Of a stretch of DNA of 64,000 nt, positions 5,778 through 62,807 are shown in pieces. A program made the position numbers and the translations under genes. The notes beneath the pieces are model-generated. The model ran no database searches and was not told the origin of the DNA. It saw only the letters and a program-made list of their open reading frames with translations. The DNA is taken from assembly GCA_964016885.1 (NCBI GenBank), contig OZ024741.1, positions 331,142,001-331,206,000 on the forward strand. Reading direction: 5' to 3'. Position 1 is the first letter of the stretch; each line of letters begins with the position of its first letter. The DNA is from Eledone cirrhosa (lineage: Eukaryota).

Positions 5778-5946
5778 ATATAGGAAAAGAGACAGGACCC
5801 CGGCGGCTGAGCTCAGGCCGTTTTGACAGCTGTTCCGAACTGTTCGGATCTTGTCTCTTTTCCTATTACCCACCCTACTTCCCTAAGTATCAAGTACTCT
5901 GGTGCGTTATGGTTCACCTGATATCTTACCACACCTTCTTTGTTTT
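5778..5946 (+). mobile_element. Short (TA)n-flanked element with terminal inversion; homologous to 62650-62800
   Basis: taggaaaagagacagga / tcttgtctcttttccta inverted. 3' part aagtatcaagtactctggtgcRttatggttcacctg is shared with 62740-62775. Confidence 0.6.
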
Positions 5947-5958
5947 ATATATATATAT

Positions 5959-6481
5959 ATATTGTTATACTTTGGGAGGGTCATGTTGCCAATAAGAAAC
6001 ACACGCACCAGTTGCTTTCACTTCAATTTATTATAATAAATTTATAAATTTAGGAATTTATAAATTTCCGGTTGATTGGTTGGTTCCACAACCAGATGGT
6101 TGTTTATATATTGTCAGGGCTCTTTCGTCACACATTCTGTGACCTCTTCAGTGATTGGGGATTCTTTTCTTTGTTTTTGTGCCTCTCCTTTGTTCTGTCC
6201 TACGCCATCTTGTTTCACACACAGAAACAAGATGGCGTAGGACAGAACAAAGGAGAGGCACAGAAACAAAGAAAGGAATCCCCAGTCACTGAAGAGGTCA
6301 CAGAGTGTGTGACGAAAGGACTATGACTATATATAAACAACCATCTGGTTGTGGAACCAACCAATCAACCGGAAATTTATAAATTCCTAAATTTATAAAT
6401 TTATTATAATAAATTGAAGTGAAAGCAACTGGTGCGTGTGTTTCTTATTGGCAACATGACCCTCCCAAAGTATAACAATAT
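5959..6481. mobile_element. ~520-bp hairpin element (arms 5959-6216 / 6224-6481, 7-nt loop) with a hammerhead in each arm
   Basis: Near-perfect reverse complement with loop acacaca; (TA)n on both sides. Confidence 0.8.
6284..6328 (+). ncRNA. Minimal type I hammerhead ribozyme
   Basis: agtca-CTGAAGA-g-gtcaca-gagtg-tgtgac-GAAA-ggac-TA-tgact. The mirror copy at 6112-6156 (-) has a mutated cleavage site (GAAAgagcCC). Confidence 0.75.
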
Positions 6482-6624
6482 CGGTTTCAACACACGTTTT
6501 CAGATAAAGAATCTTGCTAAACAAATTCAGAAACGAAATATATATATATATATATATATATATATATATATATATATATATATATATATATATATAAACA
6601 AAATTAGAAATTCGTTTTTCGCTC

Positions 6625-6925
6625 AAACATAACTGATCTGGCTGGATCCTAGACCTGCTAACCACTAAAATGAGGCAAAATGGGAAGAGTTTACACAATG
6701 AAAGCTATACTCATTTTCACAAGAGAAGACATCTCCCACCCACCCCAAAGTGGGTGAGAGATCTCGGCGTCGGACGGGGAGAGTTGACAGGTTTGGGATC
6801 CCCAAGTGAGACCAGCCAAGCTCATGGATGTTATCAAACCATCTTGCTCGGGGTCTATCCATTGGTTTTGCCCGTAAAATCTGTCCAGCGATTCTTTCCT
6901 AACCACATGCCCAGAGAAGTGTAGT
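6625..6925 (-). mobile_element. RTE LINE 3' fragment
   Basis: RPRARWFDNIHELGWSHLG peptide; similar to 8625-8780. Confidence 0.75.
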
Positions 6926-7178
6926 TTTAAGAAAAAAAATCCTCTCTAAAATGAATAAGGATGAAATCCTTAATGTTTTTCTCAAGAAACATATAGAATC
7001 CACTGTACCCGAATGTTGTCAAAAATGTGGTCCCACGAAAATAAATATCTAGTTATTATTTGACAAGCAATGACAAGTTCTAGTCATATAAAAGTAATTG
7101 AGATATATATTATTAATTTAAGTTTGAATAGAAATGCATACATACAATCAATTCATTATTGCTAGGAAACTTATAAAT

Positions 7179-8130
7179 ACTAGCAGCAGGACCCGGCGTT
7201 GCACGGGGTAGGAAACGTGAAATATGCAAAGATTGAGGAATGTAGCTGTGTACTTTTTGAATTCCCTTATTCTCAGGGAATGATTGTTCATCTACTAGAA
7301 ATGTAGAACACCAACAGGCCCGAATCGTGAAACATCTGCATGCATGTGCAAAATCTGAAGAAAATCAGCTGGATACTATTTAAGCGTACTAAATCTTAGA
7401 GTTTGATTTTTCTTCCATTGGAGAAAATCGGTTAGGTACTTTTCGAGTTTTATAGATTCGCACCCAGTCATCCAGACAGACATCATCAGTTATGTCTATT
7501 GCACCCGCATGCATACTGTACAGAGTAAAGCCTGCAATGCAAGATATGTCATGTAACCACACAGCATGTTGGGCCTTCCCCACAGGAGACCATAGCCTCT
7601 TCGTAAATCTTCCCAATCTGATATAGGCTGAACTGTTATATCGGATGCCGAACGCTTCGGGGTTACTATTGGGATCACCATCAACAATTTCAAGGGATGT
7701 ACGTTTAAGGAGGGATAATATAGTCTATAAAGAGAGGTAACTCTTTCAAAATATTAAAGAGTTGTCTCTCTTGAACATTGTAGACAAAATTGCCGAACTA
7801 AATGAAAAAAAGGCTTAAAGTTTTAGTGAAAAAAACCCGCCTTTAACAACAGAAAATTAAAAATAAAAGCTGCAGTTAATATCTTTAGACCGCAAGGAAT
7901 ATATAAATGCAAGTTTGAAGTCAATCGGAGCAGAAATGTGGATTTGTATAGACTTTGCCAAAATTAGGACACACACACACACACACACACACACACACAC
8001 ACACACACACACACACACACACACACACACACACACACACACACACACACACACACACACACACACACACACACACACACACACACACACACACACACAA
8101 CTTCAGTGTTATATATATTTATAGATAGAT
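7179..8130 (+). mobile_element. Helentron-associated (HINE/DINE-1-like) non-autonomous element
   Basis: 5' actagcagcaggacccggcgttgcacgggg hairpin terminus, internal (CA)n at 7969-8098, 3' ttatatatatttatagat. Family assignment is from recalled structure. Confidence 0.6.
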
Positions 8131-8489
8131 AATACACAAAAATCTACGAATAAAAAAAAAAGAATTGCTAATTTTACAGTTTGATTGTGGTGAAAGACTT
8201 TCCGGTCTTGTACAACGTTATTTTTTTATTAATTGTATTACTTATTCACTGAATTGGTGTGTAAAGTGGCTGAATATTCCACTAATGGTACCGCAACTCC
8301 TGGATGAGTCGTAGGAGCGGCGTATTGACATACGGCATTTCCAGGGCACTTTTAAAACCTGGTGGAGTCCATCTTCTTTTCAGGTCTGACTATAGCAGAT
8401 TCCTTGGCAGATTCCAGAATGGTAGAGAATGAGAGAAACGAAGTGAGAAAGAGATATAAAGGAAGAATCGATCCCAGTACTAGGCTGGT

Positions 8490-59870: not shown

Positions 59871-60259
59871 ACACATACATATATGTATATATTCAATGAT
59901 ATTAAATAAATGGAAACTAATTTTTGATAAGAATAATATCTCATAATAAAATAAAAATACATTTTGTAAAATGGACACCTCGCCTTGAGGGTGTGGCCCT
60001 AAACTATAGCTTATTTAGCCTATAGGGGTAAGTCCAGCACTGAACCCACTCTGCTGACCACATGAGCAACTCATCCAACACATGCTAGCAGGGAAAGCAG
60101 ATGTTAAATGAAGATGATGATGATGATGATGATGATGTCCCAGTTCTCTCCAGCATTCTCTCTATTTTAAAACAATACAAAACACAAAAACACCCTCAGC
60201 CATAATTGCCTTTTTTTTTTAACACACTTCTTTACTACCATCACATCCTCATTACATTA

Positions 60260-60720
60260 GCCTCACCCTCTCTCCCTCTCTCTTTAACCCTCACCTTCAC
60301 ACTCTCTCTTTTTCTCTCCCTCTCACTATCACCCTCTCCCTATCCCACCCTCACCTTTTCTCACTCTCTCCCTATCCCACCCTCACTTTCTCGCTCTCTT
60401 TCACTCTCTCTCTCACTCTCTTCTTATGTGACCCTCATGCTCCCTTACTCTTTCCCTTTCCCACGCTCACCCTCTCTCATTCTCTCCCTCTCTCCTTCTC
60501 TCTCTCTTCCTCTCACCCTCTCTCACCCTAATTCTCTCTCTCCCTCCCACATTCACCCTTCCTCACCCCCCCACTCGCTCTCTCTCTCATTCTCACCCTC
60601 ACCCTAAACATCTCTCTCCCCTCTCCCTCTCTTCCTCTCCATCTCTCTCACCCCTCTCCTTCTCTCCCTCCCTCCCTCCTCTCTAACTCCCCTCTCTCTG
60701 TTTTCCCTTTGCTGCTCCTC
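60260..60720. repeat. CT-rich low-complexity tract
   Basis: Direct reading. Confidence 0.9.
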
Positions 60721-61019
60721 CACCTTACTTCCCACACCATGCCACACCACCATGAAAATCTCACATCTCTCCAGAACTAAAAAGTCAAGCACCACCGATT
60801 TGTAGTAAATTTGTAAATAACAAAAGAAGCACATACCCCGCCCCACCCACAACCACCACCGCCACCACCACCAACAACAACAACAACTACACTAACTTTA
60901 ACAGGATGTGTCTACACCATTTAAAACAACTCCCAGCAGACAACACTATACAAGTAAGCTTTGCCTTTCTTCTTCTTTGTTTTGTGCCACCCCTTCTCCC
61001 TTTATCATCACCATTAATA

Positions 61020-61380
61020 TATGTTGTTGTTGTTATTGTTGCAGATAGTGTTGTTGTTGTTGTTGTTGTTGTTGGTTCTGTTGTTTCTTTCACTAGGTAG
61101 GGGTGGAGGGGGCATGAATGTTGTTATTGTTGTAGTAGTTGTTGTTGGTGGTGTTAGTGTTGTGGTTGTTGGTGTTGTTGGTGTTGTTGTTAGTGTTGTT
61201 GTTGCTATTGTTGTTGTTGTTTGTCTTGTTGCTGGTGTTGTTGGTTCTGTCTTTTCTTTCAATAGGTAGATGGTGGGGGCATTAATGTTGTTATTGTTGT
61301 TGTTGTTGGTATTGTTGTTGCTATTGTCTTGTTGTTGGTCCTGTCTTTTCTTTCAATAAGTAAATGGTGGTGGACATTAA
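61020..61380 (+). repeat. (GTT)n-rich compound repeat with three spacer units
   Basis: gttggttctgt..ttctttca.taggtag appears three times. Confidence 0.8.
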
Positions 61381-61918
61381 TACACTTGAAGATCCATCAT
61401 TCAATTTAACAAAAACAGATACATAAATAACTACACATACACCTGTATATGTATGCATGTGTGGGAGTGTATATATATATATATATGGATGGATGGATGG
61501 ATATGTGTAAATGTATATGTATGTATATACAAAGATTTAAAACATATATATATTGACTAGGACACAAAAAAGATTAAAAGAATATATATATATATATATG
61601 TACACACACACACACACACACACACACACACATATACACATATATATATATATATAAAGTCTGCAGTATTGAAACTGGAGAGATCACTAATCATGGGAGT
61701 ATTCAATGCATGGGGTGATGCTGAATGGGTATAGAGAATGGTAAAATCCTGACTGCAGTGCCAAGTGGTTCCGGTTTGTGAAAACACAAGCTGAAACCAC
61801 TTGACACCACTGTTTGGATTTTACGTGTTTTTTTTCTCCCCATTTTTTTTTCTAATAATTCCCCATTACTTCCTCTGATCACTCTTTATTTCCTATTTAT
61901 CTTCTGTTTCTAACTCTA

Positions 61919-61954
61919 TCTTCTGATGAAGGACTAGTGTCTGAAACATTAAGA
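61919..61954 (+). ncRNA. Minimal hammerhead (family E)
   Basis: tctt-CTGATGA-aggac-tagt-gtct-GAAA-ca-TT-aaga; flanks homologous to 25860-26020. Confidence 0.7.
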
Positions 61955-62807
61955 CTCTCTTCCTACTATTTCAAGCATTAAACTATTATATTTCTGTCAT
62001 GTACTGTACCATTTGTTTTGATATTTTTGTTATTTCTGTTAACCTTTTACATATATATATATATTTTTAACCTGTTAGTTTTTGCGTTACTTTGGTATTG
62101 TGTGTTAGGTTTTGCCTACCACAATGTTCAATTTGTCAAGCTATTTAAACGTATGTTATTACTCTAAGGACCTACCCTTATTGAGTGCTTTGCTAACTTA
62201 TTCATATTGTAGGTCGACTTTGCTTGCTCACAGCCAAAGCTTCGATTTTACTAAGCTTCCACATATATATATATATATATATATATATATATATATATAT
62301 ATATATATATATATATATATATATGTGTACTGCTATCTACTTGCTTTTGGTAGGGCCAATGATGTTGTTAGAACTCTATGGATCTGAAGTATTGCGACCA
62401 ATATTATGTGATTACATAACCACTAACAGTTAGTCCCTATATTGATTTATTATGATCAATCAACACACTCTGAAACGATCATAACAAATGAACTAATTAA
62501 ACACCAATCTTCACCTTTTGTTTTCATTGTTCAAAACACACATATATATACCTTTGCTTAGATTTTTTTGCTTTTTTTACTTTGAGTGCATGTCCATATA
62601 TGCACTGTACCCCTTGATAAGTTCAGCTAGATTCCTGTTGTTCTAATACTGGTGGCTTAGTTCGGATCTAGCTGTCGAAATGGCTGGAGTTCAATCGTCA
62701 GGGTCCTGACTCTTTTCATATTACCCAGTCTACTACCCCAAGTATCAAGTACTCTGGTGCATTATGGTTCACCTGGTATCTTGCCACCCCCTTTTTGCTA
62801 TATATAT

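Follow-up and report, generated by a model that had tools for sequence, protein, structure and literature searches.

A conserved bulged hairpin in the tails of Hydra-type Penelope-like elements of Eledone cirrhosa

The window analyzed here is a 64,000-nucleotide (nt) stretch of the Eledone cirrhosa genome (contig OZ024741.1), in which repeats of apparently different origin end in (TA)n runs and carry a short box resembling GAGTRCTC close to that end. Is the box a common signal, and if so, for which elements and for which step? The original prediction, made from the window alone, took it for a shared cis signal of hammerhead-bearing families, serving recognition by a reverse transcriptase (RT)–endonuclease or 3'-end formation, and linking those families to one mobilising enzyme. 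We examined the window together with a sample of the same 3.0-Gb genome, comprising 120 stretches of 10 kb (1.2 Mb) from arbitrary places (loci L031–L150). The elements are Penelope-like elements (PLEs), and the reading that we find somewhat more probable than its competitors combined is that the tail and 5' untranslated region (UTR) of the Hydra clade contain a conserved bulged stem-loop, of which the box supplies the 3' strand together with its 3' flank, and that this stem-loop is likely an RNA docking element that positions the RT.

Penelope-like insertions behind the box

All 11 of the predicted 8-mers were present at their coordinates. Their placement near the element end also held, but the spacing of 35–50 bp did not: the box ends 34–58 nt ahead of (TA)n, and 74 nt ahead of it at 26240, because a (TCA)10 run sits between the two. 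The families cannot be aligned with one another, as predicted; the 11 sites, however, are not independent, since they belong to 8 repeat families (fam1, fam2 and so on), with 5892/62747, 17838/61697 and 26240/57208 being pairs of copies from the same family. The site at 18096 had been placed on the plus strand, but its box, GAGCGCTC, is palindromic and faces the (AT)n run at 18022–18050, which assigns it to the minus strand. Decayed copies carry the variants AAGTACTC, GAATGCTC and GAATACTC, the majority of copies in their families reading GAGTACTC or GAGTGCTC; in the fam1 box, the G>A change in TCGAGT (TCG>TCA) falls at a CpG. A twelfth site, GAGTTCTC at 27349–27356 on the minus strand, was absent from the earlier list.

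The box-bearing elements are PLE insertions in (TA)n. In a unit, the (TA)n target is joined by an inverted arm that is 5'-truncated, a direct arm and, at a single end, an extra segment, the tail; the same layout is given for endonuclease-bearing PLEs in excerpts of PMC8557442 and PMC3846280. For fam3 (26140–26285), a first look across the genome returned 3747 candidates. All 30 copies fetched terminate in ..gttctactat followed by (TA)n, and the inverted arms end 64–68 nt sooner. Long fam3 copies contain both decayed and open reading frames (ORFs) with RT C-terminal and GIY..YIG motifs, and a 72-amino-acid (aa) endonuclease query yielded 14,987 first-look candidates in the genome. In the nearest ESM-Atlas clusters, RVT_1 and GIY-YIG are found in 26–78% of the members.

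A near full-length fam3 copy of ~2.6 kb (locus L211, 4880–7472) has a single ORF and, like all of the copies examined, abuts (TA)n. Its hammerhead-like motif, junction (the inner of two alternative insertion ends) and tail occupy 4880–5040, followed by a 5' UTR of ~160 nt with a second box, the ORF (~5201–7213, beginning MDLYELNYSLKNIPTPSN) and a tail-less module at 7368–7472. The tail hairpin lies ~190 nt before the ATG. The second box, GAGTGCTC at L211:5143–5150, is located ~100 nt past the tail box and ~50 nt before the start codon and has an imperfect partner (ACTA), in agreement with the two-hairpin layout of the relatives described below. The L211 protein bears DKT (SDKTNN) and CxCX5C motifs, read by eye, and its RW motif is RLRWP, not RWK; the CxCX5C linker of another ORF (L178), also read by eye, is CSCRKPEAC. 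DKT in place of DKG, the CxCX5C linker, an N-terminal RWK, the absence of a CCHH motif from the endonuclease and a short element (<3 kb) with one ORF that inserts into (TA)n are the marks of the Hydra clade according to section 11 of PMC8557442, and the words AFITLKDH and YDGAEVCE are common to the Hydra alignment in its supplement and the metagenome loci used below.

The hammerheads of these elements have candidate status, as they rest on a core-plus-helix-I descriptor and on reading by eye. In 64 fam3-type instances, a CUGANGA..GAAA core was found together with a helix I of 5 bp. At the gathering score, Rfam gave no hammerhead in the window, the copies from this genome or 10 relatives; the single weak hammerhead match, of 16 bits, is at 58720–58755 on the minus strand. 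In the window, two sub-regions and 12 loci, no Rfam family overlaps the box at the gathering score or at E<=10. Several copies of fam6, an abundant family, have the core CAGAAGA for CTGAAGA, with U4 changed (e.g. L129, L144 and L100).

The prediction of one mobilising enzyme was not borne out. In the genome sample, tblastn with the 402-aa fam3 ORF as the query detected about thirty PLE coding remnants with 23–88% identity to that ORF, and distinct ORFs are followed, at constant distances, by the family modules. The protein identity to the fam3 ORF is 33–34% for fam6 (three loci), 30–31% for fam4 (two loci), 37–39% for fam5 (three to four loci), 30–37% for fam1 (two loci) and 27% for fam10 (one locus). 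Given that at least six box families (fam3, fam5, fam1, fam6, fam4 and fam10) thus follow PLE ORFs of their own, at 27–39% identity to fam3, there is no single shared enzyme. The box families correspond to the 3' ends of separate autonomous PLE lineages, and the short copies are mostly autonomous elements that have lost their 5' part and do not represent non-autonomous families. The hairpin was retained while the proteins diverged to ~30% identity and the remaining tail became unalignable.

A young fam1 subfamily (L181–L210; relatives of 5783–5945 and 62640–62798) consists of ~250-nt units that are 95–99% identical. Their arms are constant, the 3–12 nt centre is different in nearly all of them, and the direct arm starts at a fixed base (..agtacagaattagccgtcgaaac). 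This pattern points to a short RNA template whose 5' end is fixed, and possibly to a non-autonomous derivative. No RNA datasets were listed for a young fam1 unit; in the contigs of three runs on such a unit, position 8 of the box is C in most copies.

Pairing and covariation of the hairpin

Across the window, the exact motif GAGTRCTC is not enriched (4 matches as compared to 2.48 expected, with 29 of 100 shuffles reaching 4). The genome sample contains 2608 flanks of (TA)>=5, or 2716 with the window, all of which were oriented toward the repeat. In the 2608 flanks, boxes with at most one mismatch numbered 29 in the 30–39 nt bin and 37 in the 40–49 nt bin, versus ~13 per bin farther out. A box 20–75 nt from the repeat is present in 136 of the 2716 flanks; these fall into 54 groups, of which 16 are multi-copy. 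The excess over chance is concentrated in ~10 multi-copy families, and the 38 single-copy groups occur at about the chance rate. When each flank family with at least three copies was reduced to a representative, 10 of the 74 had a box 20–75 nt from (TA)n, as compared to 1.83 ± 1.28 in dinucleotide shuffles (0 of 300 reached 10), and 7 had the box together with the partner described below (0.28 expected). In agreement with the original prediction, the box is also more frequent in flanks with a sense hammerhead-like motif (26 of 195) than in those without (89 of 2343).

A box reading GAGAACTC, 33–45 nt from (TA)n, is found at L039:4224, L045:5677, L050:4322 and L028:1683–1961. These sites are the coding 3' end of another retrotransposon, a long interspersed nuclear element (LINE; ..DRDRWRELVHGSREFYPP), and the upstream partner is absent. 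This chance look-alike indicates that the 8-mer alone is a loose criterion.

The box is located inside the tail. In about eleven families, with the ends of the flank clusters read by eye, an RCTC tetramer begins 5–10 nt past the junction, and the box follows 16–46 nt later; only multi-copy clusters were used, because BLAST of the flank ends gave noisy junctions where flanks were single-copy. The RCTC tetramer is the complement of box bases 1–4 and closes a hairpin with a bulge of 1–2 nt. The complement is present 4–50 nt upstream in 11 of the 16 multi-copy box families; for box-like motifs in the rest of the sample, the count is 99 of 781, and the complement of other 4-mers around the box, at other offsets, occurs in 1–5 of the 16 families. 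The partner co-varies with the box (ACUC/GAGU versus GCUC/GAGC): among 59 GAGT boxes 20–79 nt from (TA)n, the partner is ACTC in 48 and GCTC in 4, whereas among 23 GAGC boxes near (TA)n, it is GCTC in 17 and ACTC in 0.

A common fold of the terminal nucleotides, as envisaged by the original prediction, was also obtained. The minimum-energy folds share the shape RCUC / inner stem / loop / inner stem / bulge / GAGY, with a bulge of 1–2 nt that is U-C, U-A or U-U. The inner stems vary in sequence by family, and their stability is above that of shuffled interiors (mean z -1.35, n=13, t = -3.8). The formula of the stem-loop is 5'-RCUC / inner stem / loop / inner stem / U-N bulge / GAGY-NCUY-3'. When ten family hairpins and their flanks were aligned with MAFFT, the 5' strands remained out of register. 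A shared cis signal near the element end is supported in the form of a hairpin, conserved and co-varying across otherwise non-alignable lineages, within the PLE tail.

Two other explanations of the box were considered and rejected. Each reading frame through it is closed in some family, and the L211 ORF begins ~160 nt past the tail, which excludes a coding explanation. A self-complementary dimerisation site fails as a general explanation, since GAGCACUC, GAGCCCUC and GAAUGCUC are not self-complementary.

The hairpin is also present in other organisms. A comparison of the fam3 ORF with a protein collection returned 680 unnamed homologues, ten of which were aligned; the homologues have ~700 aa and lie on contigs of 2.2–2.9 kb. 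We picked 79 metagenome loci of Hydra-like PLEs by protein patterns alone and scanned them for the partner, a spacer of 8–45 nt, GAGY and NCT. The motif was found on the sense strand in 65 of the 79 loci, with 92 distinct sequences. There were 67 instances upstream of the ORF, 27 downstream, 19 within the ORFs, which total 164 kb, and 10 over the entire minus strand, as compared to 15, 6, 5 and 3, respectively, with a mismatched partner. The upstream instances occupy two tandem positions, at about -90 and -22, and lie 15–125 nt ahead of the ORF. The box in these relatives is GAGCACTC (43), GAGCACTT (26), GAGCACTG (12), GAGCACTA (6) or another sequence (5), and the bulge is TT (62), TC (15) or TA (13). 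A CTGANGA core precedes each of the 31 downstream copies by 64–153 nt, and in the 6 copies that have (TA)n within 120 nt, the run begins 28–33 nt past the box.

The inner stem of the relatives provided a test of pairing. If the bulge is set to 2 nt, 91 of the 92 distinct sequences form inner pair 1 (C-G 57, U-A 33), versus 1–24 in other registers. Among 17 distinct 25-nt hairpins, 99.2% of the cells are paired, as compared to 84.6 ± 1.6% when shuffled and 22–66% when the partner is slid. Cells changed on both sides number 17 versus 3.7 in the shuffles, and the covariation score is 0.414 versus 0.113, a value that 0 of 500 shuffles reach.

Published consensi of the clade carry the hairpin as well. 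In the supplement of PMC8557442, read by eye, it lies 24 nt from the 3' end in Hydra-2_Amil, occurs as two tandem hairpins before the start codon in Hydra-1_Ajap and has a variant form in Hydra-1_Crog; an 8-mer search of that supplement gave scattered, uninformative matches. The motif being present in relatives, the box in E. cirrhosa is this genome's variant of a clade-wide element. Judged from the sequences compared, most lineages here have moved from GCUC/GAGC-ACUY to ACUC/GAGU-GCUY or ACUC/GAGU-ACUC (GAGUACUC). In the same supplement, hammerhead stem III is ACTC/GAGT in three of six new Hydra families, and these four base pairs are identical to the base of the tail hairpin in E. cirrhosa.

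Possible roles of the hairpin

Insertions have two alternative ends, either the junction, which is also the end of the inverted arm, or the tail end, 60–105 nt beyond it. In 30 endonuclease-selected copies, the tail end was used in 16 and the junction in 11, with 3 unclear. The box ends 34–61 nt ahead of the tail end in this genome and 28–33 nt ahead of it in other organisms. Head-to-head pairs have exactly one tail in 19 of 19 cases (L001–L030), in 31 of 31 (L181–L210) and in 21 of 23 (the unbiased sample L031–L150 plus the window); two tails were seen in none and no tail in 2, and 40 of 103 unpaired arms have a tail. This one-tail rule implies that the arms are not made by independent choices of the start site. 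Moreover, the palindrome centre varies between copies, even between the 95–99% identical units, and the inversion is therefore made anew at each insertion. As for 3'-end formation, suggested by the original prediction, RNA processing is not supported: a full-length copy continues past the tail into the 5' UTR and ORF, and the ends are therefore internal start sites.

In vitro, the protein of the Poseidon PLE cuts and extends both target strands, and reverse transcription begins at two adjacent internal RNA sites, the tail being the stretch between them, where a protein-binding region is also found (PMC11167929). If the hairpin of the Hydra-type elements is a docking site, the RT–endonuclease, for which a dimer is predicted in a related PLE, would bind it in the RNA, and the two cut (TA)n ends would prime complementary DNA (cDNA) at the U/A-rich sites on either side. 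The cDNA started at the tail end would become the direct arm with the tail, and that started at the junction would become the inverted arm without it. We tentatively extend this proposal: the RCUC...UN-GAGYNCUY hairpin may perhaps be an ancient hallmark of the Hydra clade across animal phyla, and an anchor for a dimeric RT–endonuclease that primes at two flanking sites. If true, this would explain the tail, the head-to-head inverted arms and the one-tail rule together, and the hairpin would correspond, in PLEs, to the RNA helices by which telomerase is positioned.

Several observations weigh against a docking hairpin. The 3' half of the box, NCUY, is kept yet unpaired in the predicted folds. 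The basal 4 bp were imposed by our search patterns, so that the unbiased tests are the inner pairs and the partner enrichment only. The shorter second hairpin beside the start codon displayed no significant covariation (89.7% paired versus 89.5% shuffled), its sequence variation being too small for a covariation test, and the metagenome loci may derive from few organisms. The box is not universal: it is missing from at least five hammerhead-bearing or PLE-like tail families, which also have other folds (e.g. 6480–6537). With respect to the protein, Pfam gave no RVT_1 or GIY-YIG match on the 591-aa ORF, and PDB sequences gave none. The Poseidon enzyme chooses its start site alike on both strands in vitro (PMC11167929), which fits the one-tail asymmetry poorly. 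Finally, full-length copies have two hairpins just ahead of the start codon, for which a 5'-UTR role in transcription start, translation or packaging fits equally.

The alternative that survives best, although we consider it unlikely as the whole explanation, is that the hairpins are 5'-UTR elements, which act in the promoter or transcription start, in translation control, or in the capture of its own mRNA by the nascent protein, and which come to lie in tails when the RT starts downstream on read-through RNA. Most instances in the 79 loci (67) are indeed found 15–125 nt before the ORF as two tandem copies, the tail hairpin and the second box of L211 precede the ATG by ~190 and ~50 nt, and PLE promoters reside in the pseudo-long terminal repeat (pLTR), according to an excerpt of PMC8557442. 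However, the constant junction 5–10 nt before the hairpin, and the tail end 28–33 nt after the box elsewhere, tie the hairpin to insertion ends, and the covariation favors a folded strand over a double-stranded promoter site. A 5'-UTR role and a docking role are compatible and do not exclude each other.

Rather improbable, in our estimate, is a site in DNA, by which dimeric PLE protein or its GIY-YIG domain would bind the near-palindrome GAG-NN-CTC on resident copies, steering new insertions to places beside old ones and resolving the intermediate. The outer GAG/CTC triplets are symmetric around a variable centre, nested and adjacent PLE insertions are common here, and the tail of the Drosophila virilis Penelope is reportedly required for the endonuclease to recognize a plasmid target (cited in PMC11167929). 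Yet the conserved unit is asymmetric, with the RCUC partner, the bulge and the covarying inner stem on one side, and it is strand-specific, with 94 sense instances outside the ORF as compared to 10 on the whole minus strand. In addition, the G-U pairs (ACUU/GAGU in fam8; the U-G closing pairs of fam4, 5 and 9) would fail to match in a DNA duplex or if the opposite strand were read. Together with the strand specificity and the presence of the partner on one side only, these G-U pairs and the covariation favor a folded single strand.

That unrelated non-autonomous hammerhead families converged on, or share, the signal of a single mobilising RT–endonuclease is very improbable: the young fam1 subfamily, with its 95–99% identical 250-nt units and fixed 5' end, could be such a non-autonomous derivative, but six box families follow their own divergent PLE ORFs, and the motif predates the families of this genome. 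Chance, or common descent without constraint, of a loose 8-mer picked by eye among AT-rich repeat ends can all but be dismissed, because, despite the lack of window-wide enrichment of the exact motif, the chance-level rate of 38 of the 54 box groups and the partner-less LINE family with GAGAACTC, the family-level counts (10 versus 1.8, and 7 versus 0.28 with the partner) and the covariation oppose it, and the motif survives ~30% protein identity, diverged flanks and other organisms.

How does a docking hairpin compare with known systems? Stringent LINEs and their short interspersed nuclear element (SINE) partners carry 3' stem-loops for RT recognition, and the R2 3' UTR is comparable. The hairpin resembles these as a short structured RNA, near the start of target-primed reverse transcription, that is kept while its flanks drift; however, theirs is at the extreme 3' end and is shared between LINE and SINE, whereas here it lies between internal starts and before the ORF, with a copy per lineage. 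Telomerase RNA has template-boundary and TERT-binding helices, and there too a helix beside the templating stretch positions a telomerase-like RT, although this is an analogy only, not a claim of sequence or structural homology. The PLE RTs are the sister group of TERT, as stated in the abstract of PMC8557442.

A further likeness is to the PLE tails described in PMC11167929 and in excerpts of PMC3846280 and PMC8557442. In both, the tail is an optional extension at one end of a head-to-head unit with two alternative ends, the target is AT-rich and a hammerhead or hammerhead-like motif lies just upstream; the Poseidon tail is likewise placed between two RT starts and involves a stem-loop. Our tails are longer (60–105 nt, versus 30–40 bp published), and reverse transcription of Poseidon starts at an 'AC-rich stem loop' within its ORF; the present hairpin, by contrast, has a constant sequence signature and is found in the 5' UTR or the tail. 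The Hydra clade, as excerpted from PMC8557442, shares the short single-ORF layout, (TA)n insertion, hammerhead or hammerhead-like motifs, DKT and CxCX5C. That publication describes the protein and the hammerhead, whereas the hairpin plus box is visible in its consensi but undescribed in the parts cited; moreover, this genome has many lineages, with a box that is mostly GAGUGCUY or GAGUACUC with ACUC, not GAGCACUY.

PLEs, tails, (TA)n targeting, hammerheads and internal initiation are already published, but a conserved structured element of Hydra-clade PLEs appears to be undescribed so far. In line with the earlier remark that the motif was undescribed, a conserved hairpin or box in the PLE tail is described neither in the main text of PMC11167929, nor in the excerpts of PMC8557442 and PMC3846280, nor, by a term search, in a 2026 retrozyme preprint, with supplementary figures and subscription literature outside this scope. 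The copying of PLEs is largely unexplained; in vitro reconstitution is limited to one element, for which the RNA feature recognised by the enzyme is undefined. The present finding is a short, sequence-defined, covarying RNA element between both insertion ends, kept here and in relatives elsewhere. Binding and initiation assays thereby gain a concrete target that can be mutated, and the ends and tails of Hydra-clade elements can be annotated by a simple marker in genomes rich in them, such as this one, with ~15,000 endonuclease-coding candidates for a single lineage.

Features of the window

The box sites of the window are listed in Table 1, together with a box-less tail.

Table 1. Box-bearing PLE features of the window and a counter-example.
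Feature	Position	Strand	Details
fam1 tail	5864–5945	+	box AAGTACTC 5892–5899 (decayed GAGTACTC); upstream partner decayed to ACCC 5872–5875; inverted arm and body 5783–5863; (TA)n 5946–5962
Box-less tail	6480–6537	+	58–60 nt tail of the hammerhead-bearing palindromic unit 5963–6479
fam6 tail	13690–13783	-	box GAGCCCTC 13724–13731; partner GCTC 13769–13772; (TA)36 13618–13689; tail length in family 88–94 nt; linked to PLE ORF
fam2 box	17838–17845	+	GAGTACTC; exact partner absent in this copy; (CT)n, then (TA)n from 17883
fam12 hairpin and box	18094–18119	-	partner GCTC 18116–18119; box GAGCGCTC 18096–18103; toward (AT)n 18022–18050
fam8 box	18594–18601	-	GAGTGCTC; partner ACTT (G-U wobble); (TA)n 18521–18543
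fam3 insertion unit	26041–26283	+	inverted tail-less arm from 26041; hammerhead-like motif 26145–26190; junction 26217/26218; tail 26218–26283; partner ACTC 26224–26227; box GAGTGCTC 26240–26247; (TCA)10, then (TA)n after tail; family tied to PLE ORF
fam4 3' end	26763–26948	-	hammerhead core 26902–26948; partner ACTC 26838–26841; box GAGTGCTT 26813–26820; (AT)n 26732–26762; PLE ORF link
fam3 fragment	27313–27361	-	truncation within tail; box GAGTTCTC 27349–27356
fam3 unit	57172–57390	-	decayed box GAATGCTC 57208–57215; (TA)n 57156–57171; hammerhead core 57282–57302 (-); core of inverted arm 57315–57335 (+)
fam10 3' end	58567–58804	-	hammerhead core 58734–58804; box GAATGCTC (decayed GAGTGCTC) 58608–58615; weak Rfam Hammerhead_1 match 58720–58755; (TA)n 58551–58566
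fam2 tail part	61657–61726	-	partner ATTC 61723–61726; box GAATACTC 61697–61704; (TA)n 61641–61656
fam1 box	62747–62754	+	AAGTACTC; hammerhead 3' half (GAAA..GTC) ~62677–62700; (TA)n 62799–62808

The unit at 5963–6479 is a near-perfect palindrome of 517 nt with hammerhead-like cores in both arms, at 6123–6151 (-) and 6289–6317 (+). At its centre, many unrelated sub-threshold Rfam microRNA precursors are matched, which are false leads from the hairpin.

Several LINE remnants (APE endonuclease, RVT_1 and zf-RVT), inverted and duplicated, are found at 29059–35336 and 42087–50484. These remnants and the LINE ORFs of the window (APE plus RVT_1) are unrelated to the box. A 2.2-kb minisatellite at 2807–5067 consists of ~115 copies of a 20-nt unit resembling ATCATCAAATAAAAAATGG. 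A tRNA-related, SINE-like repeat, present in many copies in the window, is found at 26360–26645, with a weak tRNA match at 26360–26414, and at 53106–53433; the copy at 26360–26645 adjoins the (TA)n that closes the fam3 unit.

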